IMG/VR virus record: IMGVR_UViG_3300042893_001701
Span: 5,982-69,981 of that record
Length of the DNA: 64,000 bases
Reading direction: 5' to 3' (one strand)
DNA from: a virus
Under the pieces are notes generated by a model. It worked only from the letters and a program-made list of their open reading frames with translations. It did no database searches and was not told the origin of the DNA. Shown here piece by piece: positions 32,917 through 63,907 of the stretch (its first letter is position 1; each line of letters begins with the position of its first letter). Made by a program: the position numbers and the translations under genes.

Positions 32917-34902
32917 ATGATTAAATATTTAGTATATGATACTGAGACTACAGGTCTCAATATTATTTCAGACAAACCGTTTATGTTTCAATATGGATTA
33001 GTCGATCACAACCTGCAGCTTGTATCAAGCGATTGGTTTCACGTGAAAGATAAAGCCAAGATGGATGTGTTTAAACAACACTTACTATCTCTCAATACAA
33101 TCGTCGGTCATAACATTAAGTTTGACGTACACATGGCAATCAATGCAGGCTTCGATAAAGAAATCTTTATGAATAAAAACTTTATTGATACGTCTGTATT
33201 AGCACGACTTGTCGTAGACCATGATACACAAACGGATAAAACATTTTCTGCCGGTCTTAAAACACTTGGTGTCAGATACTTAGGTATCGATTCCAACACA
33301 GAAGAACGTGCATTGAAGATGGAACTAAGCCGACTAGTATCAGAACACAAAGAAAAGATGAAAGCTTACTTTGTAGCACAAAGTGTATGGGATAGCAAGC
33401 TAACACAAACAAATCAAACCAAGTTAATTAATGACATTTATCTTAACTGGAATAAAGTGTTTCACTTATACCCACAATATACACAACACCGTAAAGCATT
33501 CCTACAATCTAATCCTGAACCTACCTATGAACAATGTTCTAACGTTGTTACGTATGGTATGACAGATATTAAATTGACCCATGGTTTACTTAAACTATGG
33601 TTTCCAAAAGCAGTACAACTACAACAAGTTGATACGCTTAAACGAATTAGTAATGCTACCTATCCATTAGTCATTATGGAACGTCAAGGTCTAGCCGTTG
33701 ATGTCCAACAAGTTCTTAAAGATAGAGCAAAAATTGTCGACGAACTTAGTAAGACAACCATTGTTGATCCAAGAACCAATACAACATTGTCAATTGGTCA
33801 ACATGCAAAGCTTAAAGAACTATACGAATTTGAATCAGGTGAACAGCTAGAAAGTTCGGATAAAGAAACACGTGCTGAAATTGAAAGTATATCTCCAGCA
33901 GCTAAGGCAGCAAATTATATTGCTAAATTAGATAAGTATTTGAATACTTATGTACGATCTATACTCGATAAACTAACACTCGTTGGTAAAGAGTACCGTG
34001 TATTTACCCAGTATAACTTAGCAGGTACCATTACAGGACGCTTGTCGTCTGACTTTCAACAGTTCCCAAAGGATGCAATTACATTAGCCGATGGAACTGA
34101 AATCAATATACGGAGCTGGTTCGTTGTACCTAAGCAAGATAAGTACATGTTCTACTTTGACTATAGTCAAATGGAACTACGCCTTCAATGCGAATGGACT
34201 AACATTGTTAACGGTCACCCAGACATTAACATGGTGCGAGCATTCTCACCATACAAATGTATAGAAAAAGACGGTAAGTATTTTTTAGAAGAAGATCCAA
34301 CTAAAGAGTGGAAAGCTACCGATCTCCACGCACTAACCGCTAAGAACGCTTTTCCAAACATAGACGAAACACACCCAGATTGGAAACAATATAGAAACCT
34401 TGGTAAACGTACCAACTTTGCAGTTAACTATGGTGCAGCCGCACCTAAAATACAACAAGCTTTAAAGGTAGATTTTCCTACTGCACAAGCTTTAGTACAA
34501 GGTTACCGTAAAGCATTTGCAGGTGTCGTCGCATTTGGTAAGTGGATTAGCAATCGAGTTTATGTCACAGACAATATACCTAACCTATTACTACGTAGAT
34601 ATTACTCACGTAATAAACATCAGTTACAAAACTGGTTAGTACAAGGTAGTGGTGCTGACATTCTATTACTAAAGCTTAGAGAAATATTTGAGTATATTAA
34701 AACTAAACCACACTGGAAGTTCATGATCACCGTTCACGATGAATTGGGATTCGTATGCTCAGACATACCACAAGAACAACTTAAGCGTGAAGTAAAAGAT
34801 ATACAAAAGCTAATGACACATAGCATGTCTGCTGTTGATATCATTAGTGATGTAGAATATACAACGACCAAGTGGTCAGAAAAGGACGAATGGACAGAAT
34901 GA
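32917..34902 (+). CDS. polA: DNA polymerase family A with 3'-5' exonuclease
   Basis: YDTETTG, GHNIKFD; TGRLSS; motif A DYSQMELR; motif B KRTNFAVNYG; motif C VHDE. Confidence 0.92.
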   Translation: MIKYLVYDTETTGLNIISDKPFMFQYGLVDHNLQLVSSDWFHVKDKAKMDVFKQHLLSLNTIVGHNIKFDVHMAINAGFDKEIFMNKNFIDTSVLARLVVDHDTQTDKTFSAGLKTLGVRYLGIDSNTEERALKMELSRLVSEHKEKMKAYFVAQSVWDSKLTQTNQTKLINDIYLNWNKVFHLYPQYTQHRKAFLQSNPEPTYEQCSNVVTYGMTDIKLTHGLLKLWFPKAVQLQQVDTLKRISNATYPLVIMERQGLAVDVQQVLKDRAKIVDELSKTTIVDPRTNTTLSIGQHAKLKELYEFESGEQLESSDKETRAEIESISPAAKAANYIAKLDKYLNTYVRSILDKLTLVGKEYRVFTQYNLAGTITGRLSSDFQQFPKDAITLADGTEINIRSWFVVPKQDKYMFYFDYSQMELRLQCEWTNIVNGHPDINMVRAFSPYKCIEKDGKYFLEEDPTKEWKATDLHALTAKNAFPNIDETHPDWKQYRNLGKRTNFAVNYGAAAPKIQQALKVDFPTAQALVQGYRKAFAGVVAFGKWISNRVYVTDNIPNLLLRRYYSRNKHQLQNWLVQGSGADILLLKLREIFEYIKTKPHWKFMITVHDELGFVCSDIPQEQLKREVKDIQKLMTHSMSAVDIISDVEYTTTKWSEKDEWTE

Positions 34903-37651: not shown

Positions 37652-40600
37652 TTATTTTAATATCATAGCTTGTGATTGTCTGTAACGCACGTACTGTCTC
37701 CATTGAATGTTCTTAACTAAACGATATGGATTAGTAGTAGGTCTACGCATACGACCATATTTATTAAACCAATCTCTATAAATATTTTCATATTTTGCAT
37801 ACCTACCATTACGTCCGTAACGATAACGTCGTGGTGTATACTTTTCATAGTTTACAATATCATAAGCAAAACCTCTAAGGGTTCTTCCTAAAGTTGCTTG
37901 TCTTGTATCCAGCATTTCACGCAATACAGGAATTCTAGCAGCTTGTTCTCTTAACTTAGTGCCTGCTGCCAAATCACTTGCACCTGTTACAGTGTTAGCA
38001 ATTCTACCAATTAAACCTAAACTAGCAAGTTGATTTAAAGATTCAAAAACATTTCTTTTTTCTACAAGTGTTTTAACAGCGCGTAAAATAGGAGATATTC
38101 TACCTTCAAATGCTTCTTGTGTATTGTATAAAATATTCATTATATCTAAGGCACCATTGCCAATACGTAAACCAAAATTTTTACTTAATGGTATCCAACC
38201 ATTACGCATTTGGTATTTCATAAAGTCATCATATTCTTTTTCTTCTTCATCAATATATTGTCCATACCAACCATCAAAAAAGTCAGACATAAATCTCCAC
38301 CATCTAGGATTATTTAAACGGTCAATCCAGTTTTGTATTGAACGTACAGGGAATGATACGAATGGAATATCAGCAAGTAAACGTTGTTCTAAAGGTGATC
38401 TTAATCCATAATTAAACCAACTACGTAAAGAAGCAGTAACAGACTCATCAAAAGTTTTATTGTATATCATTAAATTATATAAGAAGTTTGTTATACGAGC
38501 ACTGTTTTCAATCTTAGTATTAATGTCATCATATAAATTAATTAAAGCGCTTGATAAAGTTTTAAAAGGAAAGAAACCTTTTCTATCTCTTCTAATTTTT
38601 CTAGCATCTGTAATCATTTTTTTAATTTCTTCATAAGTATTTGTACTTGTATCGTTGTCATCATACCCACGATATCTTTCAAAAACTTCTGGAAGAAGTT
38701 CAAAATTATCTTTACGTAAATAATCTGATGTAGCTGATGTGTACATAAAAGCACTTAATTGTTTTAGTATATCTTTTTTCCATTTATTATCTTCACCACT
38801 AATAAGTTTAGATAATGAAGGCGCATTTGTACGCACGTTATTATTTTCGTCCCGTGAATCAATTCTTAAACCAGCAATCATCTTGCCATTTATTTCACGG
38901 TTATCATATAGTTCAATATATTCACCGAATTTAATATTAGATATTAAAGTAACAACATCGTACAATGTTTCTTTATATTTATCTACATTTTTAAAATTGA
39001 TTTGTTTTATAATTCTTATTAAACGCTCAACTTTATTTAAATTAAATTTAACGCGTGGGTTATCTATTGTTCTACCAATAGTATAATAACTTTCTAAAAT
39101 TTCTTTCATCAAGTTAATATTTTTTTCGATAACTTTAGCATCAGGTACAGGCATTTTTAATTGATTTAAAATATCTTCATAATATAAACCAGCACTAACA
39201 ATTGTTGCTGTATGTTCGTCGCTATATTTTTCATAAAGATTATATAGTTCTAATGATGTCATTGTCATATGCGTAAAATCTTTAGAGTCAACTACCTTAG
39301 GAAGTATTTGCGCGTTACTAAATAATTGATACACAGTATCGTTTAAGTTTCTGAACAAGAAAGCTGCACTAAACTTAGAAACATTCTTAGAAAAAATTTG
39401 TAACTTCCATGCAAACTTTTCAAGTCCATTAGGAATTATTGTAGACTTATATGTATTCTCCATTGTTTGCATCCAAGTATCCAAATCAATAAAACCAATA
39501 ATAGGTCTTACACCTTGGTCATTGTTGCCTCTAGCAACTTCATAAATTTCTTTTAGTTCACTTAAACTTCTAATAGGTATTTCTTTATACGTAGGAGTTA
39601 AAGCTCTATTGTTTTCTAGTATAATTTTAGGATCAATTTTTTCATAGACCTGACCATTAAAAACAATTTTTCCTCCATCTGTTTGCCACTTTTTAAGTTC
39701 TTCCATATTATTAAACTTCAAAGATTTAAATTCTTCTTCTGTAAACTTAGTAAATAGTTTAGTCTTTGTATCCTTATTAGGATCAAACTTTCTTATTTGA
39801 TCAACAATAGAACGGTAAGCACCTTCATCTTCATAAGGAGGTTTTACAATAACTAAACGGAAATCACCTTGACGTTCTTTCATGAAGTTATAAATAATTT
39901 TAAAACTTAAATCTAAATTATTAGAATCAATCATGTTAGTTAACAAGGTAACATTGTTAGTCATTTCTAATGTAGATCTTTCACGATTTTTATTTAAATC
40001 TTCTTGAGTTAAATACCGTGGTTTACCAACACTACTATCGCCCATTCCATATCCATCAACAGTTCTTAATAATAAAATACCACCACCAATATTATTTAAT
40101 ACTGCATTTTGTAACGCGTTTGTTTTAATTTCTTCTTTGTCTTTTTCTAATTGTTTATTTTCTTCTTCTAATTTAGCAATAGGATTTTTGTTTTCTGCAT
40201 ACCAAGCTTTAATTCTTTCAATATTTTGAACAGCTGTTTTTAATTTGCTTTGTTCTTTTTCTTGCAACTTAATTTTATTTTCAGTTTCTTTAATAAGCTG
40301 CTCGTTACTTGATTTTTTATTTTGAAGCTCTTCTAATTTAGCATATTGCTTTGCATTAGCAGTGTCGCGAATAGCATTACGTACACGTCTTGTGCTTAAT
40401 TCATTTTGTGCAGTAGTTTTTAAATTAAGTTTCTTTATAATTTTTTTAGTATTTTTTATTTGTTCTTCAATATTATCTGTTGAAGTTAAAATTAAATCTA
40501 TTTCAGTTCTAAAATTATTAATAACGTCATCAATCTTTTCTATTTCAGAATTAAAAGTAGAGTACTTTAAACGATCTGTTATATCTTTAGATACTTCAGG

Positions 40601-43600
40601 CATTGTAGCTTCTAATAATTCATCAGATGTTTTTGAAATAATAGGACCGTTATTACTACCAGCAACGCTTACACTTAAGTGTACGTCGTTGTGTTCACTA
40701 ATAGCTTCTTTAATATCCTCATCTAATAAATCATCTTCTGGTGTAAATACAGTACGATTACCTTCTTCATCAACAATAAACCAACCTTCAGTCATATCAT
40801 TTACGTTTTGGAAAAAGTTATAAATAATAGTTTCTTTACCATAACGATTTTTAAAAACTTCCATAAAGTTAGGATCTCTTAAACGATACATTAAAGATAA
40901 AATGTTACGGGTATTTTTTACTAAGTTAACTTTATTTATATCAAGTTTATATTTACTTACAAACCGTTCACTTACTACATTAGCAATTGATAAAACATCT
41001 CGTAAAAATGTAGATAGTTTATAGAAAGGAATATTCATTGATTCAAAAAATCTAATACTATTTATTAAATCATTTGAATATTGCATATAATTAACAGGAT
41101 TTATTAATGCATTATTTAATTGAATAACTTTATTAAACATTGTAGTAACAAAAGTATCAGGCATAAATAAATTTCCTAATAAAAATAACTTAGCACGTTC
41201 AACAATTAAAGCATTAATATCATTTAGTGCTGGCTTTTCTTCTGTGTAATTTTCTTTAAGAGATACATGACTATCAGGATTTTGTTCAAAGTATTCTTGG
41301 TTAATACTTCCTGATCCAATTTTATCTAGTTTTAAATCAATACGCTCACGCATATTTCTATCTGTATTAATAGCCATACCAAATAAACTTTCAATATTAT
41401 TACTACCTAATATAATTTTTCTAATACTTTTTTTAGTGGTAATTTCATCAACAGCTTGTCTATTTAATAATGAACGTTGGTTAGGATTTGTATCAATACC
41501 ATCATGTTTATTCATAGATATATCTTTTTGAATTAATCGAGACATATTATTCAACGCTACACGTTCAATAACAAACTGATTTAAATAACCACTCATTAGT
41601 TCTTCTATACTTTCTCTACCATTTAAAAAACCATTAAGTGTTTTAGGATTATTAAAGTAAAACATTAATAATTCTTTAACAAAGCTATTAGATATTGTTT
41701 CTTCGGGATTATATTTACTCAGTTGTTTAATGTAGTTAGCAATAACAGGATCATTAGTTTTACTAGAAGACTGCAAGAACGTTATATATTCTCTATAAGT
41801 AACAGTGTCTTGGTTAACTAAATCAGAAAGATTTTCCAGCTCAACAAATCCTTGTTTGTATTCTTCTACAAGTCTAATTAAATCATTAATAATTAAAGGC
41901 ACATCTTTAACAAAGAAACGCATGCTACCTTTAGGATTATTAATAGCACTGTTACCTGTCTTACCCGTTTGTTTAATAGTTGTTAATAAATTTAAAATTT
42001 CGTCAGGACTTAAATCAGTAACATCTTTACCTATGATAGCTTTTAATAATGAAGCGATAGTAACTTCGCCTTCTTGGTTAGCTGCAGCTCCAATAGATTT
42101 CCAAAACTCACCTGTTTTTGATAAGTTAATACGTGGATATATTGAAAGGAACGAGGATATAAATTGATCTTTACGTTTATTACCTGTGTAATTAACACCA
42201 TTTTTAGAAGCACGACCACGGCTTGTAGTAAATTGTTCAATCTTTTTAGTTAAAACAAAACGAACAAATCGTTTATAAAGACGTGCAAATTCAGGATCTT
42301 TATCATTTGTAATAATATTTTGTTCTTCTTCTGTAAAGTATTTTAAATAGACATCAGTAAGATCTTTATTAAGTTTTACATCGTTACCAAACATTACTTT
42401 ATTTTGTGTTAAAGCAGCTTCTAAAGTATAAAGTAAATCAATGTTTTCTTTATTAGTATTGTAATATTCTAATACCTTTTTATTGTCTTGGTAATCATTA
42501 ATTGTTTTAATAACACCAGCAAAGTCATTGCCTTGATTAGTCATTCTAATATGCGCATTTACGTATACTTTTAAATTAGCAGTATTAGAAGTATCTAATT
42601 CAATAATAGTATTCTTAACTGTTTCCCCAAGTTGAGCTAGTATATCTGGTTCAATTAAAACATACTCTTCGATTTCTAGATATTCTTTATTAGGTCTTAC
42701 ATCTTTATTAAATGTATTTTTACCTGTTTGGTTACGAGTAAATTTATAACTAATTAAATCAACGTTACCAACTTTATGTTCGTTTTTAATTAAATCTAGT
42801 TCTTCTTTTCCAAACATTTCTTCATTAGATTTTTCAAGATAGCTCACAAGATTAATTACATTACCTTTACTATCTTTCTTAACTTCTTCATCATAAGTGT
42901 AGTAATTTAAGTCAGTAGAAAGCAAATTTTTTAACGGAGCATCAGGACCTTCTACATCATTTATTTTTAACAAAGCCATACCTAAAGCATCACCGTCGTT
43001 ATCAGCACCCATCATGTTATATGCATAAACGTTTATATTAGCAGCGTAGGATTTACTATAACCTATAGCTTTAAAGACAGGCACAGCTGCATAATCTTGA
43101 ACTGGTGAACGAGCAGCTAGTAAATATGTATACGTTTGTTTTATAATTAGTGCACTAAGTTTGTTTACATCTGTTACATTCGCTTTTAATTCTTTATATA
43201 AAGCTTCGTTTTCTTTTGCAAAAATACCACGAGAGTTTAAATACTCTTCACGTTCTTCATCTGTTTTATAAGTTAAAGCAGTTTCAATGTACTCTTTAAT
43301 TTTTTGTTTGTTTGTTAACTCTTCAGTTTTAATTAACGTACCACCATCACGTTGGTTACGTTCTTCAATAGCTTTCCAAGCAGATTCAGATAAATTAATT
43401 TCACCGGCGTCAAGAGTAACATCAGCAAGATACTGTTGTCGTATACCTTCCCAACGTTTAAACGTAGATTTATAATAAGCACTTTGTTTACCGTCATACA
43501 TTTTTTGTAAGACGTTACTTTCTGTATTAGTAACTAGCTTTTCAACTTCCTTTTGATAACCTATTGTACTGTTATTAGAAGTATGGATAAGCAATAATAG

Positions 43601-46600
43601 TTGTAAGTATTTAATACCTTGGTTTCTTACATACTCATGTATTTTTTTATTCTGAAAAGCTTTTGATAATAAACTTATATATTTTTCAAAAGCTTCTTCA
43701 CTATTTACGTCTTCTTCTTTTTCAAGATTAATCGCTTCTTTAATAACAGTTTTAAATCCTAAAGCACGTACATCACTTAATAAGTTTAAGTTACTGTAGT
43801 CAGGGTTAAATACTTTAAAGAAGTTATCTTTACCAATTTTTGTAAATATTTGATTCATTACTGTAGGTGATAAAGACTGACCTTTAATTGGGTTATTATT
43901 ACCATCTACAATAGTTCTAATTAACTTACCAACTGCATTAACTTTAGTGATTGTTTGCAACGCTTGTGCAGTATTTTCATGGTCTGCATAAACGTATAAC
44001 AAACCTCTGACATATTTGCTTTCTGTTAAGTTGCTAATAATATAACGACGTTCATGTAGTTTATTTTGATCTGTGTCAGTGTCTAAATCTTTCTGATTAA
44101 AAATAGCAGGTTTAACAATTGTAGGTGTAACAACTTGTATACCTTTTAAATCGGTGATATCTTTTTCTTTATAATCTCTCAATAAAAGAACTTGATATAA
44201 TTTTTCTTTACTTATACCTGTAAATTCTGGCAGGTTCCCTAACTTACTTTGAATAACATCTGATAATTCTTCAAATATTTCGTAAGTTGTTTTACCGTCA
44301 ATTAACATAATATTATCTTTACCAGACTTAGTAATTAAAGGTAAAAATACTTTTCGTAAGTGTTCGTCAATAAGTTTAAAGTAACTTTCAGTGCGTTCAG
44401 GTACAACACTGTTACCACGATTATCAGTTTCTTTAATTAAATAAGCACGGATATAGTTAAATAACATTTCAGCATAAGCACCAGCAGTACCACGACTAAA
44501 GACTGAATCAGCAGATGCAGCAAAGTATGCACCATATGTCTTGTATAAGTTTGGTATATATCTTACAGCTCCTTTAAAGCCGTAGTGCAATCCTAACCAA
44601 GTCTTATTACCTTGCCCCCAGTTAGTTGCTCTAGCCCAATCAGCATCAATTGCGATAACGTCTAAAGGAATTCGTGGGTCTTTAACAAAAGCTACAGGTA
44701 CTGTGACCCCAAATTGGTGCACCATTGAATCTTTTTTATATTCATTGTATAAACTTTCAGACATAATATTAGGCATAAAAATTTGAGTATTAGACGTTTT
44801 AGTCTTTCGTATGAACTGATCGCTTATTGTTTTATTATTTAAATATTTAATAGGGTCTGCTAAAAATGTTTCTAATAACTTTTTACCAGGCGCTTGTTTT
44901 TCTTTAATATCTCCATAAATATTATTAAGAAATCCTACTGTAGTATACTTAGCTAAAAGATGTTTAGCACTTAGCATTGTACGAATAGAGTTTGTCATTA
45001 ATGTAAATGGAAAATTAAAATCATACTTAGTTTTATATTTAAGCACAGCACCCATGCTACCGTCAGAGTTTAATCCAAGATCTATTTTTTCTTCTTCTAA
45101 AAATTTAGCATCAAAACTGTCTAAGTTATAGTCATAACTGTAATCAGAATTTATTTGATTGATTAAGGATCCAGGTTCTAGTGCTTTGTACTTAGCTGTA
45201 ATACGGTTATAAATACCTGAATATATTTCTTTTATATTAATTGCTGTTAACTTTTGATTAGATTGATATAAAGAAAGTTCTGCAAAAAATTGATTTTTAA
45301 TAATTTTAGATATGTTAATAACTTGTAAATAATTATAGTTACCTGCAAACTTTTCATGGGTCAAAGTACTGTCATATAATTCTTTAATAATTTTAAGCTT
45401 ATCGTCTACTTGTGCTTTAGTATCATCTTTTTTAAAGTTAACAAACTTGTCTTCACTTTTAATAATCCATTCAATTAGTACTTTAATTGCATCTTTGCTA
45501 GAATCTTTACCCTCTGAAAAATGTAATTCATCTTGTTTTAAGTTAGGAATAATAACAAGTTTTTTATCACTCTTAGTATCTTGCCAATAGAAGTGTTTGT
45601 TTTCATTAATAAATTCTTTTAATTCATTAACAGTAAATTGATAACCTTTTTTATTTTTAGGGTTTAACGCTACTTCTATTTTCTTTTCTTGTATTTGAAA
45701 ACCTTTACTAGTACCACCAGAATATTTTAAATGTGCAGGAATGTAACCGTATTTTAAATTAATAGTTAAAGTATTTGATTTTGCATTGTATACAACATTA
45801 TTTGCTTCATTGTATTCTTGATCTAGTACCGTAAAAATATAAGTATTATTAGTTTCGTCAGTAGCATCTTTAATAACTTTACTTAATACTGTATTTGAAA
45901 CTGTTCTTAAAACTTTAATATCATTTCCTTTAGTAGGATCGTCATACATTACTTTAACGCCTTCTTTTTTTAGAAGTTTGTCTTGGTCTATTTCTTCTTG
46001 TGGTAAAATACGTGATGCTACATCTTCATATTGTTCATCAGTCATTCTATCAGATGGTATTTCACCCGTAATTAAAGTTAATATTGATTCATTTTTAATA
46101 CGTTCAAGATTATCTTGAATACCAGTTAATGTATGAAGGACATCTTTGTATACTAAAAGAACAGCATCAGTTGACTTTTCTTCTAAGGTACGATCACCTT
46201 TATAGTTTTCTAAAAATGTTTTTGTTTGTAGTAAAGCTGTATAACGATCGTTTACTAAAGCTTTAAACACTTCAAACTCATTGCTAAAATTATCTTTTAG
46301 TAAGTCGTCAAATTTAATACTTGTATACTTTAAACTTTCTTCATAGGTGTTTAAAAGTCTTGTTACATTTGTAACAATAGCTGTGTTAGATTCAAAGAAT
46401 TTTTGATTATTATCAGTAGCTTCAGTAATAACATTATAAATAGTTTTAATTGTTTTATAATCAGCTACTTTATTATTAAATAAAATCTCACCATCTTTAA
46501 CTGAAACCCCTTTGTAATCTCTAATATTTAAAAGATTCTTTAAAGATTCAATAAGTTCTGTTTTAGTTTGTTTTAAAATAATCGTATGATCTTTTATAAA

Positions 46601-49600
46601 CTCTTCATAAACTATTTTAAGTAAAGCAACAACACCGGTGTCTTTAATATTTTCTTCAGCTTTATTAAGAATACTTAGTTCTTTATTAATTTGTTCTAAA
46701 GCATCTTCTGGTTTTAATGTACCATCTAATACTTGAACTAATCTAGAATCTATTGTTTTTTCAAGCGTCTTTTTTAATTTATCTTCGCTAAGATCTTTGC
46801 TACTCAACATTGTGCTTAAGTTTAATAAAGCTTGTACTTTATTTTGAAGATTATTAAAAGCTACCTTTTGTTGATTTTCAAACAACGCCAATGATTTAGG
46901 ACCTGTAGAACTACCTATGTTTGCGGTAATATTATTTAAAGCAATACCAATAGTTTTAGCATAACCAAAACTATTGTTGTTAATTTTACGTGCAACATCT
47001 AGTATCTTTAATAAAATTTCTTCATTAGAAACTTTTAAAGTAGCTTGTTCTTGCTGTAAACGTACAATTAATTTTTGACCTTCTTCAATAGTTTTATTTA
47101 TTTTATCTAGTTCTTCTTGACGTGCAAGTACAATTTCATCTGATGTAGCACCTAACTTTAAAGCTTCTATTAAATTATTATTAGCTAATATTGCAACATC
47201 AATTAATTCTAAACGTTTGTTAACATCTAAAGCATCACCTTCTTCATACAACTTAATGCCTGTTTGACTAATTGCTTCTAATGTAATCTCTGTTTTAACT
47301 GTTGTTCCTGCTTTAGTTGCACCGTAATCAATTTTTAGTGCACCACTTAAATACTGGTTATATGTGTTTGTTACATCAACAATTAATTTTTCTACATACT
47401 CAATAATAATTTTTTGAATAGCAGGGTTTCTATTATTTAAACTAATACCTTCCATAAATTTAAGTATTAAATCTTCTTTAATACTGTTTTGTTCTATAAT
47501 ATCTTTTGAATTAATATGCTTTAATAAAGAATCGTTAATGTATTTAATTGAACCTGTAGATACATCCATAATTTGTTTACGAATATTATCATTAATAATA
47601 TAGCCAACTTGTTCAGATGCATATCTTACACGTTGTTTTATTTTTAACTCTGCTGTTTTTCTATTAATTAAATTTAAACGTTTCTTAAAAATATCTGCTT
47701 CTTGTGAGGTCAACAAAGGTAAACGTTCATTTAATTGTTTAATTGTATCAGCATATTCTTTTTGCAAAGCAACTAAATATTCTTTAGTAATTTCATCATC
47801 ATTTAAATCAGTTTTATCTATGTTGTCAAATATTTTTTTAACATCTGTTTCTTCTCTTAAGTTACGATAGTATTCGTTTACAATTAAATTTTCTCCAACA
47901 CGTGAAACAAAATCTTTAATTAAACTAAAATCAAAACGATAACCGTTATGTGCTACGATATCTACACTTTGATCACCAATAAGTTGTAAGAAAGTATTAA
48001 TAAAGTTATCATTGTTTTTGACATTTCTTACACGTGTAATTAACAAGTCCATTTTTTCTTTTGCTTTAATTTCAAAATTTTCTTCTGTTAAGTTTTCGTT
48101 TTTCCATTGTTCTTTCCATATAGATTTTTGTTGTTCATAAAACTTAAGCATGTTTTCTTTATAAGATCCATCATCATTTAAACCATCAAAGAATAAAGCA
48201 CTGTTAATAAATACATCGTTAATAATAACTTCATCATTCTTTTCGTAAATCATTGTCATTTGATAAGGTTTGAATTGTCCGTCTTGTTTGTAAGTTTCTA
48301 AGTCAACCACTACAAAGTTTTTAGCATTTGGTTTTTGATGTATGTAATTTAAAAACGTAATTAAAGAGTCTACAATAGAGTTGTGTAAAGCGTAATCACC
48401 GCGTGACATAATTTGTTTTTTAATAACATCTACATTAAAGTTCTTATAACGTGACTTTAATGTTGATAAAACAATATCAATAACATCAGATTCTTCTTCA
48501 TCTTCTTTAATTTTATAATAGTGTTTAAATACGTCAATGTTAGATAGTTTATCTCCAGCAACTTCAAGTTCTTTTTTGTATAACATTTCACGTTCAGCTC
48601 TTATTTTTAATAAAGCTTCTCGTTTTTCTTGAAGTAAAACTTTTAAGTCAGCTATATTTTTTTGAACTTTAGGCACATTTAGTAATTCATCTTTTACTTG
48701 AGCAATATCATTTATTTGACCGACAATAGCATTTTTATTTTCATTAGCTTGTTTTAATTGACCGCTAGATTTATTATTAGCAACAAAACGAATTAATGAT
48801 TCTAATGTAGCATTGTTAATATCTAAAGTAGGGCCACCTAGTGCAGCATATAAACTATTAAATAATTTTTTATTATTATCTGAGTCATTAATAGTAGGTA
48901 CTTTTTTTACACGTTTTAATATGTCATCTTCTAATAAAAGATCTTTAGTTGTAAGCTCCCATTGCTTAATTAATTTTTCATTGTTTAAAATAATTTCATC
49001 AATATTGTTATTATATAAGTTATTAATTTTATTATTAACAATTGATAGCAAAGATTCTGCGTGTTTTAATTGATCTATTGTTAAACCTGATAAATTAATA
49101 TTTATATTTTTACTTCCGAAATCAGACTTAATAGGCCTATAACTTTCTTTCTTTTGAGCAACACTCATTAAAAGATTGTAAGCTACTAAAGGATCTGTAA
49201 TATTTTCAAACAAACGTTCTGTGTCTTCTGTTATACGTTTTACTTCTTGATTAGTTAATAGCCCGCCTAATTGTAATTCACGTTTTACAAGTTGTAATTC
49301 TAAAACAGTATTAAAGTATAAGTTAATTTTAAATTCATTCTCACCTTTTAATTCTGTTAATGTAATAGCTTCTGTAATATTAATTAACTTTTTAGATTTA
49401 AGATTTTCAAGATGCGTTTTTAATATAGCTGTTTCATTTTCAATAGCTTTAATTAAAACAAAAGGCTTAATAAGCGTATCTTCTGTAATTTTACCAAGGT
49501 CTTTACTGTCTGCTCTACCATATGAAATATTAAAAGCACGTACTAACATGTACGCTTTTTTAAGGTATTTCATTTTTTCGTTAAATTGTTTATTGTGTCT

Positions 49601-52600
49601 GGCTTGAATTAAATCTTTTGCAGTTTCTGTTAATTCTTTAAAGTTATCTTTACGATCAATAGTATCAAAAGTTCTGGTTAAATCAATTTTACCTTCTTTT
49701 TTAAAGTCAGTTATAAGTTCTGTTAATGCGTTTAAAGCAAAGTCAATTTGATCTACATCGCCCAGACGTATATTGTCTCTTTGTTCTTTTAAGCTTAAAA
49801 TCTTTTCATCAATAATAACACGTTTATCTTTGTAAGAAACATAAGTAAATTTTTTACTTGTTATTTTTAAACCTTTACCACGAGCATCTCTTTGATCTCT
49901 TAAAGCATTTAGTTTATCTATAATCTTTTTATTGTTAATATCTTTATAAATATTAAATAAATCTTTAACATTATTAACTTCGTACACTGCTAGTTCATCT
50001 TTGTAAAAATCAAACAACGTATCAAAAATAACATTAGCAGGTGTGTTTGTTTTTATAAAGTATTCAAATTCTTCATTTAATAATTTGTATATTTTAAATT
50101 CTTTAGTAGCTTCAATAGCTTTAACTTCAAGATCATCTTTTAAATAAGCTTCGTATTCTTTAACAATTTTTGATTCATATTCATTTTTAAGTTTGTCTAA
50201 TCTAAGTTGTTGTTTACCTAATTCAAGATTAATTTTATTTTCTGCACGGTCTAAAAAGAAGTTTCTTAAACCAGGATAAAGTTTAAATAAGTTATTAATT
50301 AATTCAAGTTTCTTTTCTTTAATAATTTTTTCTTCTTCTTTTACTTTTTGATCTGCTTCCACTAATTTTTCTTGTAAAATAAATGTAGCTAAGTCAGCTT
50401 GATCATTAATATCTTGTGGTATATTTAAAGGTCTAACAGCATCATAAACATAATGACTTGGTGCATCTTTAATAGTAAACAGTGTATTTTGCCTATCTAA
50501 TCTTCTGGCATTTGCTGTACTTGTATCTAAAGAACTTTGCATTTTAATAACAGTTTTATCTAAAGCATCTATTTCTAATTCTTCATTTGCTTCATCTTGC
50601 ATTTTTATTGTAGTTGCTGCACCAATTCTATTTTTCTTACCATAAGCAACATCAAATGTGTCATACCATTGTTTTGGATTATAAAAGTTTTCGGAAGCAT
50701 TAATAAAGTTATTAATCTTTAAACCTGTTTCAATGATTGATTTTTGTTCAACACTTAATTGATCAAATGTTTTACCTTGTAATTTAGCCAACTCTTCTTT
50801 TTTTTCAAGATTAGTTTTATCACTTTTAATGATACGATATATAACACTTGTAATAGTTTTAAACTTATAGTTTTTATACTGAAGATCAGTCTTAAGTTGA
50901 TCTTTAATACTTGCAGCTAATTTATTTTGAATTTCAGGTATGTCTTTACTGTCTACAAAACGGGCAGTAAAAATATATCCTATAACAGCTTTAATATTAC
51001 TGTCATTAAATTCAACAATCTTATTGTTATTATCAGATATACTAATAATTTGTTTAACACGTTTAGCTAACTCTGCATCAAATTCATCTGCCAATACATC
51101 AGGACTTTTTTTAGAACTTGAATTATTAACGATGTATTCTTTTTTAGCTTCTGATACTAAATAGTTATACTGTTCAATAAAGTAATTAACAGCACTCTTT
51201 TCTTTTAAAAATAAACCAACTGCAGTTGCCACGTCTCGTACTCTTATAAACTCGTAAGGTTTAAAGTCTTTTTTAATAAATGCTAAAACATCAGTAAAGT
51301 TGTTTCTTATTGAATTATATAAAACGTTTGAACTTCCTACATCTTTTGTTTTAGATGAGTTTTCTGCCATCATATCTAAAACAAAGTCTTTACGCATCAA
51401 CATAAGTTCATACATACGTCCACCAACAAAACCGGCTTCACCTTCTCTAAATAAAGGTTCGTATAATGTGCGTTGAGTTTCTGTAGCTACTGTTTTAATA
51501 TTATTTTCTTTATAAATAATCCCATGACGCGTGCCAGTGTACTCATCATTATCTTTTAAATTAGTGCCATCAAGTATAATACGTTGTAAACGATCGTTTA
51601 AAAAAGTTACTCTTGAGTTTATTTTTCTTAAAGTAACAAATCCTTTATTAAAGTAAAAGTTAATACTATTAGTAATAGCATTACCGTCACCTAAAACATC
51701 ATTCATGTTAATTGTTTTATAATTTAAGAAATTATTTTTATCTCTTAATTTTTCATAGTATAAAACTTGTTTAATTTTATCTGCATCTAAACCATAATCT
51801 TTTATATTTAATTTATTTTCAATAAATTGTTGTTTATGATAATTAATAAACAACATTAAAACAGTAGCTTTTGTGTAGTCTTCTGTAGACAACTTATCTT
51901 TTTTAGCAGTTTCTATATTTTTTACATGCGCGTTAATAAAGTGAGAGATATCTTCATACTCACCTTCTAATATAGAAAACACTTCACTTCTAGTGATGCC
52001 GAACTTATTCATAACCTTAACAATTTCTTCGGTATCAGTATCGTCACTATAGTTTCTAATAACATCTTTAAAATAATCTAAGAACTTTTTACTGTTTTCT
52101 AATAAGTCTAATGTATGAACTTCATAAATTTCTTTATAACTTAGTTCAACTTTTTTAATTTTATAAGTACCTTTTTTTATAGCAGATACTTCATTTATAA
52201 ATAAATTAATTGTTTCTTTAGTTAAGTCATCGCTATCAGTTAACATTTTTTTATATTCACTTGTGTCTGTAATAATACGTCCAGTAGATATATTAGCGTT
52301 TCCAACGTCAAACATTACTCTTATTTGAGCTTCTGTAAAACCTTTAGCAATCATTTCTTTTTTAAGGGTATCTGTTTTATTAATTGTTTTTTCAAGTGTA
52401 CCTAACTCTGATACATAACGTTTAGTTTCTTTAGTTTCTTTAGAATATAAGTATTCTGTTGCAGTTAAAATAACATCACTTGCTAAATCTGTTAACGATA
52501 AACGATCAGCATTATCTAAAGAATACCCAAATTTCTTTAAAACATATTGACTAATATATTCATCAATTTTAATGTTTTCAACTGGATCTAATTTATTTTC

Positions 52601-55600
52601 TGCTAATTGCTTTTTAACTTTCTCGGCATCAGGTGCTTCGTAACTAAACATTTTTGATGTATCATTACCTTTATAAATTAAATGCTCGTTGTTATAGGTA
52701 TATCTTACAGCGTTGTCTTTAATTATATTAGAAGCTTTTAATCGGGCTCTTATTTCTTTTAAAAGAATAGTTTCCTGTGCTGTAATACTATTATCTTTTT
52801 CTTTAATTCTTAATAAACTTTCGTTATGAGTTAATAAATTAAGATAATCAACATTATTATAACCATCTAATTCGTTAGTAATGTTTCTATCCATGAATTG
52901 TTTAATAGACACTAAGTAAGATTTAATAATATAACCATATATTAAATGATCAGCAATACGTTCAGCGCTTGTATAACCATCTTTTTTATTTTTTTCTTGC
53001 TCATATATTTTTGTAGCAACAGCATAAATAGACTCTTTTACTTTTTCTGGTACAACAAAAAGTTCTTTTAATTTCTTGTAAAGAGTTTCACTATTGATGT
53101 TACGATTATTAAAATCTCTGAATAGTGTTCTAATACTTGTAAAATTTAAATAGTTAATACTATTGTTTTTATACTTTTTATGTAATACATAATGTCTTCT
53201 TTTAGCAGCATTTACTAAATCATGTAGTGTTTTTAAATAATACTGCTGTGCGTTTAATACACTTAAACCCTGTAAGCCGGCGTAAATATTATTTTTTACA
53301 CCATCAAATAGTTTAACTGGGTCGTATTCTTTTTTATAAGGATCTTTAAATGCAGTATCTAAAACACTGTAAAATACCTGATTTACTTCATTGTATAGTA
53401 CATTAAATGTTTTTATATTAGAAGAAGATACTTCATCACTTAAAGATGTTTGTATATGCTTTTCAATAATAGGTACAATTTTTTGATAAGCCGTGTTGTT
53501 TGTTCTTTCAATGTATTTAACAATACCGTAAATAGAATTTTTAAGTTTTAATAATTCTGAAATGCTATCAGGAGTTAAGATATTAAAGTAATTTAATTTA
53601 TTTAATAAAGGACTTCTTCCATATTCATTTTGTAGATACTGTAAAGCATTAACAATCTTATTAAATAAACCTCTACTTTTTAAACGTTGTACTAATTGTG
53701 CGTTTAAATCTGTTTCAATATTATTTAAATTATAGTCTGCATTAATAAACTTACTGTTAAAAAAGTTAACACCAATTGTATGAATATCATAATCTTCTTC
53801 TCCGATTAAATTATAAAAGTCAAAAAATATAGTATTTAACTTTGCACTTTCTACAAGTTTTTGAAATGGTTGTGTATTAAATAAGTTAACACCGTTACCA
53901 TAAGCTTTTAAAATAGGTACAAATCCTTGTAGATTTTTTTTACTATAACGTAAAGCATAAAATTCACTTAACTTTTTAAGTACTTCAAAGGCAGAGGTTT
54001 TATTGCTTGTGTCTAAACTTTCTTTAAATACTAAATTAATATCGTCTAACCAGTAATCTACAATAACTTTGTTACCTTGTACGTTAATGATATCGGGTAT
54101 AGGTACAATGTTATCGTCATCTATTTTATGTATATCAATAGTAGGTACATCAGATTGTTTAAGCTTTCCTAACTCTTGTATTTCAGCGTATTTACTTTCA
54201 GATAATACGTAAACTTCAATAACATCTCTTTCTCCAGTTTCATAATTGTTATTCATTACTCGTTTTAAAACGGTTGAAATAGATTTAGTATTATCAAAAC
54301 TCCAGTTTTTATCAGGAACAACTACAACCGCACTGCCATCATCTGTTACAATACGTACGTCAACATTTTTTACTTGTTCATTTTTTGCAACACGATCTTG
54401 CATTAAGGATAATAAGTTAGAATCATTATTTTTTAAAGCTTTAATTAATAAAACGTTAAGCGTAGGAATACCTTTACCATCATTTCTATCTTTGTAATCA
54501 GGTATATCTTTAGTACGGTAAAGTTTAGGTTCTCCTGCTTTGTTATATGCTAAAGCAAAATCATCACCATCTGTATTTACTACGTTATTAAAATAACGTT
54601 CAGCTACTTCTGGATCTTTAATCATATCTTCTAAAATAACATCAAACTTATTAAAAGGATCTACTGTAATTTTACTATTAATTTCTTTATAAAATTTAAT
54701 TAAATCATTATAGTTTTGTTTTCGTATCTTATACATATTAACAGTACGTTTATATATAACAGATCCTTTATCAATACCTTCTCTACTTTGGTATTCTTTT
54801 AGGTCTTCATTTAATTCTTTAACAAACTTTTCGAGTCTAACAATATTAGTATTTTGTGCTTTACCTTTAACAGCTTTAGAATCTTTAAAAAATATATCTT
54901 TAATAATAGTTTTAATAGCTTCGGGTTTAATAAATACTTGTTGACGTATACCATCATCTGGACGTTTAATACTGTATCCTTTAAATTCATCAGCATTTAA
55001 CTGTGTTAACTGAAGTAAAGTTAATAGCAGTAAAGTGTTTTTATTTCTAAGACTACCATTTTTATTGGTAAGACTTATTGCAAACATTTCTTTTTTATTA
55101 TCATCTTTATCGTAGGCATAAAATACAAATTTAGGATTTACAGGTTTACCACTTGTTAGATCATCGTTGTATTTAACAAGTGCATTATCAATATATAAAC
55201 TGTAACTGCGATAGCGGTTATCATAATACATATTAAAATCTATTTGATTTGTATTTAAATCTTGTTCAAAAATATTATTTACTAAACGTAAACGTTGTCT
55301 TAGTTCGGTTACACCAGGATCTGTAAATAACTTATAAATTTCTTCTGTAGCTCCTTCTTGTTTCATAAATACTTCTTTACTGATGCTAAAAGCATTATTA
55401 GTTAACAGGCTGCCATACTCTTCAATCAACATATCGTAGCTTGCTAACGCAGCTGCGATAAGATCTTTAACTTGATTAGATGTTTTAGATGCAGCTGTTC
55501 TTAACCCAACAGTTTCTACAAAACGGTTAAAGTCAGTTCTTGAAAGACCGTGAATAAATATCATGTCAAACACAGAGTATTGTACAACTTTATTGTTAAC

Positions 55601-58600
55601 CTTAAAATTAAAGTATATTTCATTATCTTTTAATTCTAAAGATTCAAAACCATCGAAACTTTTTAAAATAATTTTTGTAGCATAATCTTCTGTATAGTAG
55701 TCTTTAACTACGTGCAAAATTTTAAAAAATATATGACTATATTCATTTGGATTTTTATCTGCTTTAGCAGTAGCTAAGTCTTTAAAGAGTTCTTGAATTT
55801 CTTTTGATTTAAGAATAGCTTGTATTCTAATTGAAGGACTGGCTTCAGCGGTATATTTGTCAATACTTGTTTTTAAACTAAGCTCAAGATCTCTTAAATC
55901 CACAATAGCATCAGTTAAAGTACTAAACATTATAATACTTTTTTTATTGCGATTTAATATACCGTGTAATTGAGAGTTTGTTTTAGAAATTAAATTTTTA
56001 AGAACATCATCTTTGTTTTGATCTGTAGCTGCGTCTAGCAACCAGTTTTTAATATCAGCAGTAGAAGCGCCTTTGCCTAAGTAAGAACCAACTTGTTTAA
56101 ATAAAAGCGTTTTAAATAATTTTGTATACTGTACTTGTTTTTTAAATTTATCTTCCATTTTAATCTGAACATCAACATTACCGTCTTTTAAATATGCAGC
56201 AGTAATACGTTTAGCTATGTCTTCAACATTTCCACTTGTATCTATGTCTTTAAATTTAATAATTTCAGGATACTTTATAAATAACCACGCTAGCTTATAA
56301 CTAAAAGCACCAACAGCTTCTTCGTACTCTACAGTGCTACGATTGTTTTCTTTTAAATATTCATAAATGTTTACATCTTTTTTGCCACGAAGAAACAAAG
56401 ACATATTTAAACGTATTTGTAAATAATCAGGCAAAATAATATAATTTCTATTATTCACTAAACCTTCAACTAATTTTGATCTAGCAAAACGACCGGTTCC
56501 TTTACCTTTAGTAGCAGGCAAACTTACAATGTCTAAAGATAACTGAGTCCTAACTTCAGTAGGACCGTATTTATCTTGCATAATTTTTTCTAATATTTTA
56601 TTTCTTTTTTCTTCTGGACTTAAACGTGCGTCATCTTTAGCAGCTTCATCTGTTACAGACTTAACTTCTTTTTCTTCTAACTCATGTATAATACGTTCAT
56701 CTTCTGCTTTGTTAAATCTTTGTATTACTTTGTCTTTTAACCTAGATTCTTCTTCAGTTAAAACAGCGTTCACATTCATTTTAAATCTAACAATAGAAGC
56801 TTCTCTTAAACTTTTTAAATCTAACGGATTTAATAAGGTTCTAGTAAAGTCAGATTCTAAAAAATTATTAACAATATTATTAGCAATTCTTTCATTTTTT
56901 ACTGCTTTTTGTATATCATAGTCTTCAATGTTATCGGGAAGTATTTCACTAATCGTTGATCGTTTAAATAAAGTTAACTTATTTTTATCGTGTTGTAAGT
57001 AGTTGTATAAAAATGATTTAACATACCGGTAGATAGGTGTGTATTTTAAAGAAGTTTCAAATCTTCCTTGAAGTTCTTCTAAGGTAGCTTGGGTAAACTC
57101 ATCTATTTTACCTGTAGTTTTTGCAACTTGATCGTCTAAATTTTTAATAATTTCTGCAGCTTTAACAAATGCTTGTATAATTGGATTTTTATTTTCCTTT
57201 GGATCAGCACCATCTTTATATAACTTCATCTGTTCTTGCATTACATAACGGTATAAAAGATCACTAGATATTTGACTAGAAGCATAAAATGTTGTAGAAC
57301 CTACTTTAGTTCTAGCTATAGTTTCCATTGTTACAATAGCTTTACGTAACGTCTTATCTTCTAATAGTTTGTCTTTATCTTCCTGTTTAAGATTAGATTC
57401 ATTAATATACGCAACGATTGTTTTAACTTTATTTTGTGGTGTAAGATCTTTAAACGTTTTTAAATCTAAATTAAAATGTTTGTGATTATAATTTAATAAA
57501 TCTTCAAATACATTTTTACCTAATAAAGTATTTAATAACTTGTTAATTTGTAACTCAAAATTATCTTTTAAAACTACACCTACTTCTTTAATTTCATTAC
57601 CTGTTTCATACACTTTAATAAAGTATGCCTGAGTAATTTTTTCATTTACGTTTTCTTTTGTTTCATTTCCGTCTTTATCTTTAACTGTAATTTGAAATTG
57701 AATCCCATTTAATAAATTAACACGTTGTAATTCATTTAAAGTTTTAACTGTTAATTCAAATTTAACAGGATCAAAACCTTTAATAAGACTAACAGGATCT
57801 TTTTTACCGTTTCTAATTAACTTTTGCAAATCAGCAAGTTCTTTTTTATTAACATCAATCTTTTTATTTACTTCATCTTCAGATGTTTTTAATGCAGCTA
57901 TTCTTGTTTGAGTGTCATTAACACGTTTGATTAAAGCTTGATAGTCAACATCTGTTTTTAAAAAATCTGCTTTATATTGTTTTTCAAACTCTTGTTTCTT
58001 TAAAAGTAAACCATTCTTTTTATTATTTAAAATATCTTCTTCATCTTCTAAATCTTTTTTAACTTTGGTTAATCTAGCATCAAGTCTATTAAATTCATTT
58101 TTAAGATTGTCTGTAGCTTTTTGAGGGACTAATGTATTAAAGTATGCTTTGAATGCAAACAAACTTTGAAGTACGTTTAAAGTATAATCATCTGCTCTAA
58201 TAGAAGCTAAGTTTAAAACATTAAGAACTGCTTGGTAATGCTCTACATATTTTTGATATATTTCAACATTATTAATAGCCATTTCATAATCAACAAATGC
58301 AGCACTTAAAGCAGTTCTTTCTTGTGATTCATCTTTTGTAGGATTAGGTAATGCTCTTAAATCTTGTAATCTTTTATACTTTTCACTGTAGTTACTATTA
58401 TCAATAGTTATCGTACTATTGTTTATTTTATAATCAATAGTTCTAAATGCATACTTACTTCTATTGTCTTCCAATGCTTGTAATTGTTTTTTAACTTGGT
58501 CAGTAAGCCTGGTAAAATATTCTTGTTGTGCGTCAAAATTGTTTTTAATATTTTGAAGTTCTTTATCGTTTTTAAGATTTTCTTTAATGTCTTCTATTAA

Positions 58601-61708: not shown

Positions 61709-63691
61709 CTACTCTACGTTAGAGCCTTCGTCGTTGCCAGTACCCTTGTTACCAAGAACATCTTGTTCAAGCGTATCGACAAATTCTTTTAAGTATTCAG
61801 CACGGATTGCTTTGAATTTTCCATCAACTGTATCGATTGGTGCGCTTCCAAGAGCGTTGTTTCCAGCAGTGATAGCTTTTTTAAACACAAACGCTTTAAC
61901 TTCAGTTGAGTATTGTGGGGTTGCAAATGAAGTACCGTTTGCTTGCTTTAGTTCAACTGTAATTGGGTGTAACACGACTGCACCTTTTGCATAAGCAAGA
62001 CCCGCTGCATAAAATTTATAAGCATTAACACCTGCGATATTTGGCGATCCAGCCAAACCACCACGGTTAACACCATCTACACGTAACTTACCTGCGCCAT
62101 CAATACCAATTGAATTAGGATTGTTTTGTTCATACGCTTCAGCTTCAGTTAAGAAGTTTGGTGCGTAGTTCTTGTTGATAACTTTTTCAGTTAATGCAGC
62201 AAGTTCAGCATAACGTGGGATTCCGAAAGTTACAACAACAGCTTCAGGACGCTTAATTGCTAATCCAAAACCATCAACTTTGAAACCAATAGATTGACGT
62301 TGGTCGATTGGGTCAGCGACACCAGATGAACCTAACGCTTTAATAATAATTTTTGGCGAGTCAGACACACCTTCCATGGTTAACTTCACTAATGCTTCTG
62401 CACCAAATAAAATACCACGGTGGATTGGGAGTTGCATAAATTCGCCGGCATCAATGTATCCGTTGATTTTTGCTAAATCACCAGATGCACCAGCTTCAAT
62501 AGCACCATACGTCACAACGCCAGTGAGCGCGTTAATCGTACGGGTTTGCTTTTTAAGAACAGCAGTGGCTGCTACTGCTTCATCTGTTGCGGATAACACC
62601 ACAGTTGCAGTGACATCTTGAGCAGCTAATACTAAATTAGTAGCAACTGTACCAGTAGGAATTTCCCACTTAATTAATTCGTCAATAGCCGATCCATCTT
62701 TAAGATACGAAGTACCAGCAAGATTAGACTTAGCTTTAACACCCGTGCTAACAACAAAGTCTTGATGAATGTCTAAGTACCAAATCGTGCTAGTAGGGTT
62801 ACCACTAACTGGAGCAATTGGTTCAACTGCGTATAAACGGATAACTTCAGTACCGTCTGCTTTTTCATAGACACCTGGGAATTCAACATCAGGATACGCA
62901 AATTCATCTAACATCGTTGGGACAAAGGACAATTCAAACATGTCGAATTGTTGACCAGTCGTCCAAAGTTTGCCAGTGGTTTGTTCGATTTCCATATATT
63001 GTTTAACACGTGGGTCATCGATTAATCCATTAATAAATTCTGGTGAGCACACATACATAAATTTACCGCCGACAGGTTTAACCATCATGCGTTTCATACG
63101 TGATACTAAGAAGCGAAGATCATCTAAACGGATTTCATCACCAAAATGTAATTGATTAAAGCCTGTTTTAAAGCCGGCAAAGAATTCATTTGGGGTAGCT
63201 AACCAAGTCTTACGAGCATACAGTTCTTTGGTTTGGTTGGCAACTTCACCATATTGAACTGAACGTTCAGCAAGTACTTCGTTAACAATACTTAAGTCTA
63301 ACTTGTCAGTATATTCTGACCAGCGACCGAACGAGAACACGTTACCAACTTCAATAGTTTCGTAAGCATGTTTGTCTGGAGCAGGTGGAACACCTTCCTT
63401 TAAAGGAGTCAAGGTTGGAGTTAATCCAGCCCAACGACGGAAACGAGCAACAGTGTCGCCTCTGCGAATCGTTAACGTTTCAGCAGCTGCTAAGTGTACG
63501 TAGTTTTCCTCACCGTACTTGAGAGAGTCGATCAAAATTGTGTTGTAAAAAATGTTGGGATCAAACCCAGCACGATACACACCATCTTTGTCGTAGAGCA
63601 TTCCAATAACAGTGTTAACGTTTTGCAAATTATGCAACGGTAACAATGCTTCTTTGGAAGTCTTTATATTTGCGTCTGATAAAATGGCCAT
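61709..63691 (-). CDS. Major capsid protein (HK97 fold, N4-gp56-like family), 660 aa
   Basis: RFRRW...LKEGVPP, FGRWSEYTD, DPIDQRQSIGFK motifs; RBS AAGGAGG before the ATG at 63691. Confidence 0.85.
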   Translation of the reverse strand: MAILSDANIKTSKEALLPLHNLQNVNTVIGMLYDKDGVYRAGFDPNIFYNTILIDSLKYGEENYVHLAAAETLTIRRGDTVARFRRWAGLTPTLTPLKEGVPPAPDKHAYETIEVGNVFSFGRWSEYTDKLDLSIVNEVLAERSVQYGEVANQTKELYARKTWLATPNEFFAGFKTGFNQLHFGDEIRLDDLRFLVSRMKRMMVKPVGGKFMYVCSPEFINGLIDDPRVKQYMEIEQTTGKLWTTGQQFDMFELSFVPTMLDEFAYPDVEFPGVYEKADGTEVIRLYAVEPIAPVSGNPTSTIWYLDIHQDFVVSTGVKAKSNLAGTSYLKDGSAIDELIKWEIPTGTVATNLVLAAQDVTATVVLSATDEAVAATAVLKKQTRTINALTGVVTYGAIEAGASGDLAKINGYIDAGEFMQLPIHRGILFGAEALVKLTMEGVSDSPKIIIKALGSSGVADPIDQRQSIGFKVDGFGLAIKRPEAVVVTFGIPRYAELAALTEKVINKNYAPNFLTEAEAYEQNNPNSIGIDGAGKLRVDGVNRGGLAGSPNIAGVNAYKFYAAGLAYAKGAVVLHPITVELKQANGTSFATPQYSTEVKAFVFKKAITAGNNALGSAPIDTVDGKFKAIRAEYLKEFVDTLEQDVLGNKGTGNDEGSNVE

Positions 63692-63907
63692 ATAAGCCTC
63701 CTTGTTTTTGTTAGATCTCACGTGACAACGTATTGTATGCAGATCCGCTTTTAATAAAAAACGCCAGAAAGATAGCATTAAATAACATAACGAGAAACTG
63801 TTATATTACTTCACTACTCATTCTGGCGTAAGCATCCATGTATAAATTGCCGAGTTTTACACACTTCGATCTGGACACTAAAGTAGTCCGCTACTATCTA
63901 CACGTAT

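Follow-up and report, generated by a model that had tools for sequence, protein, structure and literature searches.

The minus strand of the virus record IMGVR_UViG_3300042893_001701 (69,981 bases) encodes a giant protein of 7,862 amino acids (aa) in a single open reading frame, which occupies 23.6 kb of this ~70-kb record. The stretch of DNA analysed here, called the window, comprises 64 kb of the record (positions 5,982 to 69,981), and the giant frame lies at 37652..61240 of it; all window coordinates of the giant's features given below are on the minus strand. Residues ~4278–4478 of this protein very probably adopt a DnaQ-type (DEDD, RNase H-like) fold. An original prediction, made from the letters of the DNA, had proposed a DnaQ/DEDD 3'-5' exonuclease module in this chain, and a predicted RNase H-like core together with invariant acidic residues indicates that it was very probably right. 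The region is most economically read as a DEDDh module that retains all five catalytic residues after circular permutation, and on balance we favour the view that this highly diverged module is an active 3'-5' exonuclease.

The ExoI motif, FVVVDLETYK (aa 4309–4318, 48287..48316), lies on the predicted strand beta1 within NFVVVDLETYKQ (aa 4308–4319, window 48284–48319). Its acidic pair D4313-x-E4315 is encoded at 48296–48304, with D4313 at 48302–48304 and E4315 at 48296–48298. The ExoII motif, IVAHNGYRFDF (aa 4428–4438, 47927..47959), lies within DIVAHNGYRFDFSLI (aa 4427–4441, window 47918–47962), where the predicted strand beta4 passes into the start of a helix, and contains the invariant residues H4431 and D4437. 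Both motifs are thus found where the original prediction had placed them, and its approximate position of residue 4313 is exact for the ExoI Asp. The acidic residues, whose conservation had been proposed as a check, are invariant: D4313 and E4315 are each kept in 21/21 covering family sequences and D4437 in 26/26, as is H4431 in 25/25. With near-duplicates removed, the counts are 17/17 for D4313, 17/17 for E4315, 20/20 for H4431 and 21/21 for D4437. Pairwise identity across the domain core has a median of 34% (range 24–76%). Among six sequences, the two 100-residue intervals of aa 4301–4500 have 30 invariant columns each, making the motif region a conservation island that is rivalled only by the polymerase-motif region and the C-terminus. 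Histidine makes up 0.7% of the giant's residues. When the protein was shuffled 2,000 times, HN...FD arose in 24 shuffles and D-x-E followed by HN...FD 80–160 residues later in 4; the same pattern with H-x4-D 15–40 residues upstream arose in none.

Two segments containing the motifs were modelled. The first model covered aa 4225–4680 (456 residues) with 7 sequences and reached a predicted local distance difference test score (pLDDT) of 71.6; it contained three strands, helices, a fourth strand and a long antiparallel two-helix hairpin (helices 257–285 and 288–321 of the model; ~aa 4481–4545, ~65 residues, 47606..47800). In the Foldseek search with this model, Hermes transposase came first (E 0.014), the PolC exonuclease followed at E 0.063, and DnaQ-type matches were weak. 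Since the hairpin dominated and swamped the structure searches with the long model, aa 4278–4478 (47807..48409) were modelled alone. This second AlphaFold2 (AF2) model (m0a7a97997442), made template-free from a 23-sequence alignment, has a pLDDT of 83.2 and a predicted template modelling score (pTM) of 0.71. Its elements are a helix (model residues 11–25), three strands (32–42, 45–57 and 60–67), helices, a fourth strand (150–153) and a further helix (161–187), giving the order ExoIII-like helix, beta1–beta3, helical insert, beta4 and ExoII helix. Structure prediction, another check that had been proposed, yields an RNase H-like beta1-beta2-beta3-alpha-beta4-alpha core. ExoI lies on beta1 (strand 32–42), and the ExoII Asp is at the start of the helix that follows beta4, matching DnaQ-type enzymes. 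The stretch NLIVNEYYRNL (aa 4451–4461, 47858..47890) approaches the catalytic residues in conservation (N4455 in 19/21, Y4457 in 18/21). It is modelled as a continuation of the ExoII helix (pLDDT ~77–81), and may be a remnant of beta5 and the helix that follows it.

The structural neighbours of the second model are mainly exonucleases. The best PDB matches found with Foldseek were the Thermotoga PolC exonuclease domain 2p1j (E 4e-3, probability 1.00), the DnaQ domain 8h2f (probability 0.97) and TREX2 (probability 0.90). A second look, at the 1,000 best chains, listed 50 rows, of which 42 named DnaQ-type exonucleases, six were ambiguous by title and two were unrelated. Superposition with DnaQ-type enzymes extends over 103–116 residues at 14–21% identity. 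The structural alignments cover only the ExoI-to-ExoII part of the targets (TREX1 6–144, PolC exonuclease 357–462) and in no case the ExoIII third, as expected if the last third of the domain is elsewhere. Searches of BFVD returned RNase H-superfamily and phage 'Exonuclease' proteins (E 1.3e-3 to 4e-2), the latter with probabilities of 0.98–0.99 and E-values of 6e-3 to 1.4e-2. In the ESM Atlas the nearest named clusters were RNase_T/RNase_H_2 (0.91), and all 10 of the 10 best matches have a family or clan in common. This result serves as a lead only; 4 to 10 of every 100 shuffled proteins score as high.

The best candidate for the third motif, ExoIII, precedes ExoI. The helix HNSIVDSLITFLNYIHQ (aa 4286–4302, 48335..48385) lies immediately outside the interval originally flagged. 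Its portion LHNSIVDSLITFLNY carries an exact H-x4-D, formed by H4286 (48383–48385) and D4291 (48368–48370), and ends six residues before beta1, with D4291 22 residues ahead of the ExoI Asp. Both residues are kept in 21/21 family sequences. Two further divergent giants, P0151 and P0153, keep the H-x4-D and the other DEDDh positions when read by eye. The loop from the ExoIII-like helix to beta1 varies from 6 to ~27 residues and is ~22–27 residues long in these two. All five DEDDh residues thus appear to be present in the sequence, in permuted order. PMC2628886 defines the DnaQ-H family by an RNase H fold that carries the five residues DEDHD.

A scoring matrix for ExoIII was built from 19-mers of Escherichia coli dnaQ, orn, sbcB, rnt and exoX, whose domains were located with the Pfam profile, and was run over the ~7,800 windows of each of ten giants. 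The upstream helix ranked first in 8/10, although the eight are relatives rather than independent trials and the motif had been noticed before the scan; it was not the top window in the two most divergent giants. In the protein studied here it scored 9.8, against a mean of –16.6 (standard deviation 6.2). Canonical ExoIII helices begin at the active site and lead away from it. In the model, H4286 caps the N-terminus of a confidently predicted helix (11–25, pLDDT ~89–91) and D4291 is in its first turn. A 15-residue helix connected through a short loop to an 11-residue strand would have to fold back along that strand, which would bring D4291 level with D4313 and E4315. On this geometry the upstream helix would likewise start at the active site. 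The helix is probably the ExoIII element, which the original prediction had suggested might be lost or lie behind a long helical insert.

The closest known counterparts of the module are the DEDDh exonucleases (PF00929, RNase_T), which include the PolC exonuclease (2p1j), Pol III epsilon, TREX1/TREX2, oligoribonuclease/REXO2, RNase T, Exonuclease I, ExoX and T4 DexA. As in these enzymes, there is a D-x-E on beta1, an H-N-x-x-x-F-D at beta4 and the next helix, and a helix with H-x4-D. The ExoII motif of the giant reads AHNGYRFD, compared to AHNAAFD, AHNANFD and AHNASFD in the E. coli paralogs, and its H-x4-D helix, HNSIVDSLITFLNY, can be set beside those of E. coli ExoX (HRALYDCYITAALL) and RNase T (HSALYDTERTAVLF). 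In contrast to these enzymes, the H-x4-D helix lies before ExoI rather than after ExoII, no beta5 is predicted, a helical insert of ~60 residues separates beta3 from beta4, and no profile hidden Markov model (HMM) matches. The domain is also embedded at residue ~4,300 of a 7,862-aa chain.

Catalysis in such a module would follow the two-metal scheme: the four carboxylates would hold two divalent metal ions, the His would activate a water molecule, and nucleotides would be removed singly from a free 3' end. The helix with the putative general-base His and fourth acid (H4286-x4-D4291) would contribute to this site from a position before beta1 and ExoI, while canonically it follows ExoII (here D4437).

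To identify relatives, several sequence collections were searched. A word-indexed search found six, five of 7,805–7,924 aa and one of 5,689 aa, and an exhaustive profile search of 1.84 billion representative proteins gave 20 matches, all of them giants (6,661–7,998 aa) or short family pieces. Cluster look-up added further giants of 7,587, 7,682 and 7,748 aa. Giant relatives of 7,587–7,998 aa are found on contigs of 72–79 kb. A tblastn search of 50,697 phage records gave no match to the domain. In IMG/VR, a search with the single giant protein recovered 0 loci and one with a family alignment recovered 1 locus; another family alignment matched 0/481 candidate stretches in GTDB genomes. By these sequence searches, the giant family is rare and isolated but real. 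Several short members cluster with giants of 7,587–7,748 aa or sit on contigs of up to 79 kb, and many of the short members are probably fragments or broken gene calls.

Two side observations concern the family. P0147, a family member of 1,252 aa in the cluster of P0013, carries the same three motifs and is encoded on an NCBI contig of 1.42 Mb, and its cluster mates are pieces of 52–231 aa; it may be a prophage copy, or a giant gene split by gene calling, and offers a lead to the host. The default bias filter of HMMER dropped two true giants, P0151 and P0153, which gave E-values of 7e-27 and 3e-21 with --max. Searches with the default filter may thus miss members of this family, which is rich in lysine and asparagine.

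Several results weigh against an active, permuted DEDDh exonuclease. With the domain as query, no Pfam family was found at E-values up to 10, so that no gathering threshold was reached; in PHROGs nothing covered it, and the RNase_T and DNA_pol_B_exo1 (PF03104) profiles, run on the record, found nothing in the giant. None of the 20 matches in the search of 1.84 billion proteins was a canonical exonuclease. In hhalign comparisons ExoI and ExoII fell in register, with values that were not significant, both against 121 relatives of E. coli epsilon (E 0.081, probability 0.7%) and against five E. coli RNase_T paralogs (E 0.02, probability 2.3%); the latter test is weakened by a shift of four columns in the dnaQ ExoIII of the reference alignment. 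Taken by itself, the upstream helix fell on the ExoIII columns, its H, D and T in register (score 9.0, P 0.38), a score no better than that of many of 34 control blocks; in the same test the ExoI and ExoII blocks scored best and aligned to the right columns. No Foldseek match, in PDB or BFVD, reached an E-value of 1e-3, and the AF2 model of aa 4278–4478 lacks a fifth strand (beta5). Finally, both virus records examined are of the linear class with estimated completeness of 66% and 79%, which bears on the role in end resection considered below. Of the checks proposed with the original prediction, the HMM search came out negative for RNase_T, DNA_pol_B_exo1 and Pfam as a whole; an RNase H-like core is predicted, with four of the five strands, and the acidic residues are conserved.

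The rival that survives best, itself unlikely, is that the domain descends from a DEDDh enzyme and no longer cuts, serving as a module that binds 3' ends or nucleic acids, or as a folded spacer in an ejected giant. Against this, all five catalytic positions are invariant in a family as divergent as this one, and pseudo-enzymes usually lose such residues; the region is also among the best conserved of the protein.

Still less likely is a chance resemblance of the motifs on an unrelated alpha/beta fold, the conserved residues serving another purpose. Every similarity score is under the usual significance thresholds, as this explanation would have it, and the frequency with which shuffled proteins reach the Atlas score also speaks in its favour. 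Further searches gave results of the same kind. In a phmmer search of PDB, TREX2 aligned both motifs ('FVFLDLEA', 'LVAHNGFDYDF') at a non-significant E of 2.2, behind alpha-parvin (E 0.064), which matched on a helical stretch; with the family profile, the best PDB matches were coiled-coil proteins. A chance origin is opposed by the three motifs lying in the right secondary-structure elements, by Foldseek probabilities of 0.97–1.00 for DnaQ-type domains and the preponderance of such enzymes in the second look, by the RNase_T/RNase_H_2 identity of the Atlas neighbours, and by the absence of the full pattern from all shuffles.

The remaining rival concerns the region downstream of ExoII, where the original prediction had been unable to place ExoIII, rightly so by the present results. 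Even when only the seven closest sequences are compared, no His between residues 4431 and 5295 is invariant, and the only downstream candidate is the Y-x3-D of GYIIND (aa 4546–4551, 47588..47605), which follows the hairpin. A DEDDy-type exonuclease (family-B-polymerase or RNase D-like) in normal motif order, with Y4547-x3-D4551 as its ExoIII, would fit the invariance of GYIIND in 7/7 of the closest sequences, the fact that the sole nuclease-type PDB matches of the family profile were to the ExoII region of archaeal family-B polymerases (E ~0.5), and a hairpin that returns the chain near its start, so that a motif right after it could come within reach of the core; it is nevertheless very unlikely, and the candidate was rejected, as Tyr and Asp are each kept in only 10/18 sequences family-wide, the stretch has a pLDDT <50 in the long model, the structural neighbours are DEDDh enzymes and not polymerase-B exonuclease domains, and the DNA_pol_B_exo1 profile has no match.

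The same chain carries a motif of the two-barrel RNA polymerase (RNAP) type, DxDGD, in GADNDGDALGM (aa 6078–6088, 42977..43009). GADNDGD lies 1,767 residues downstream of ExoI in this protein and ~1,700–1,850 residues downstream in relatives, and the DxDGD motif is present in 12/12 full-length giants examined (as GGDNDGD in P0011). The RNAP region gave no PDB sequence match and no match to Pfam RNA_pol_Rpb1_2 (PF00623); in the ESM Atlas, a cluster with RNA_pol_Rpb1_2 came third with a score of 0.76, which is a weak lead. The original prediction of an exonuclease upstream of an RNAP core in one chain is borne out as regards the motif, and finds no counterpart in PDB sequences or PF00623 as regards the core. 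Elsewhere in the giant, Pfam searches with four overlapping pieces gave sub-threshold noise only, no family being matched in the 7,862 aa, and PHROGs gave one weak, unrelated match near the N-terminus, to a family of function unknown.

The start codon of the giant frame is listed as TTG, with an ATG at codon 5. Directly upstream, on the same strand, is the gene of the major head protein (61709–63778, minus strand), and tailed-phage genes for a portal, a large terminase, a primase, a DnaB-type helicase and a family-A DNA polymerase lie around the giant. The family-A polymerase (PolA; 32917–34902, plus strand; phrog_17, E 6.5e-68) shows at its N-terminus weak matches to the RNase_T profile and to a 'DNA polymerase exonuclease subunit' PHROG, and from these this part is perhaps the phage polymerase's own 3'-5' exonuclease. 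Since the phage has its own PolA with a possible exonuclease part, the module in the giant need not be a replicative proofreader. The left end of the record cuts a minus-strand open frame of at least 1,260 aa, so the record is incomplete at that end.

The RNAP-type motif in the same chain and the position of the gene beside a head gene make it plausible that the giant is packaged in the virion and ejected with the DNA, in which case it would act at the start of infection. Phage RNAPs described as packaged in or associated with the virion include gp66 of the crAss-like phage phi14:2, the N4-like vRNAP (~3,500 aa) and gp96 of Thermus phage P23-45, a tape-measure-fused two-barrel RNAP of 5,002 aa. 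Like these, the present protein is a giant with an RNAP catalytic motif, its packaging being presumed from the position beside the head gene; unlike them, it is ~1.6 to 3.6 times longer, and it has no sequence-level match to any of the three. According to a preprint on gp66, double-stranded M13 DNA is not transcribed in vitro, the native phage genome is transcribed weakly, and single-stranded or denatured DNA is transcribed very efficiently (10.1101/2020.03.07.982082). This preference for a single-stranded template provides a rationale for a fused nuclease that resects ends. The most likely role of the module would be to trim or resect the linear genome at its 3' ends as it enters the cell, giving a single-stranded template for the polymerase part; RNA 3'-end trimming and the degradation of host or defence nucleic acids would be alternatives. 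Proofreading or trimming of RNA, end resection and degradation of defence signals had been put forward as possible roles in the original prediction. Resection in the 3'-5' direction exposes the strand that has its 5' end at the terminus, so that transcription would run towards the genome end. That the giant as a whole is a self-contained, ejected transcription-starting machine, in which the exonuclease makes the single-stranded DNA template for a crAss-type two-barrel polymerase, is a speculative and rather improbable extension of this proposal.

Other combinations of such domains offer partial parallels. In nidoviruses, the DEDDh exonuclease nsp14 ExoN shares a polyprotein with the RNA polymerase. 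There, as here, a DEDDh exonuclease and an RNA polymerase would belong to one translation product of ~7,000 residues, but nidoviruses are RNA viruses whose exonuclease proofreads RNA-templated replication and whose domains are freed by proteolysis, and no homology is implied. The exonucleases of Cas2-DEDDh fusions and of DinG serve in prespacer 3' trimming and in repair, respectively. Those of the Cas2-DEDDh fusions (PDB 8fyc) and of Staphylococcus aureus DinG, at whose N-terminus the exonuclease lies (PDB 9ii8), differ from the giant's module in having the canonical order and unrelated partners. The polyvalent proteins of phages and conjugative elements (Iyer et al. 2017, PMC5512222) resemble the giant as very long multidomain chains deployed by a virus at entry, whereas no domain of the giant matches a Pfam family; in that paper DnaQ is absent and exonuclease occurs once, among the references. 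The main texts of the two virion-RNAP preprints searched, one of them 10.1101/2020.03.07.982082, contain no mention of an exonuclease or nuclease. Word searches of the literature, covering titles and passages of the main articles, returned no description of a permuted DEDD/DnaQ exonuclease, and none of a virion-packaged phage RNA polymerase with DnaQ.

If the reading of the domain as a permuted DEDDh exonuclease is true, it would represent, judging by the literature searched, an undescribed circular permutation of a much-studied nuclease fold, in which a catalytic helix that normally closes the domain has come to open it. It would also join a nuclease to a probable virion RNAP within one chain, a combination absent from the literature searched, and would offer a testable answer to how virion polymerases that prefer single-stranded DNA obtain their template at the start of infection. 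A domain that Pfam, PHROGs and a profile search across 1.84 billion proteins all fail to see would then have been assignable from invariant residues and a template-free model, an approach that would bear on giant phage proteins, where thousands of residues lack annotation.

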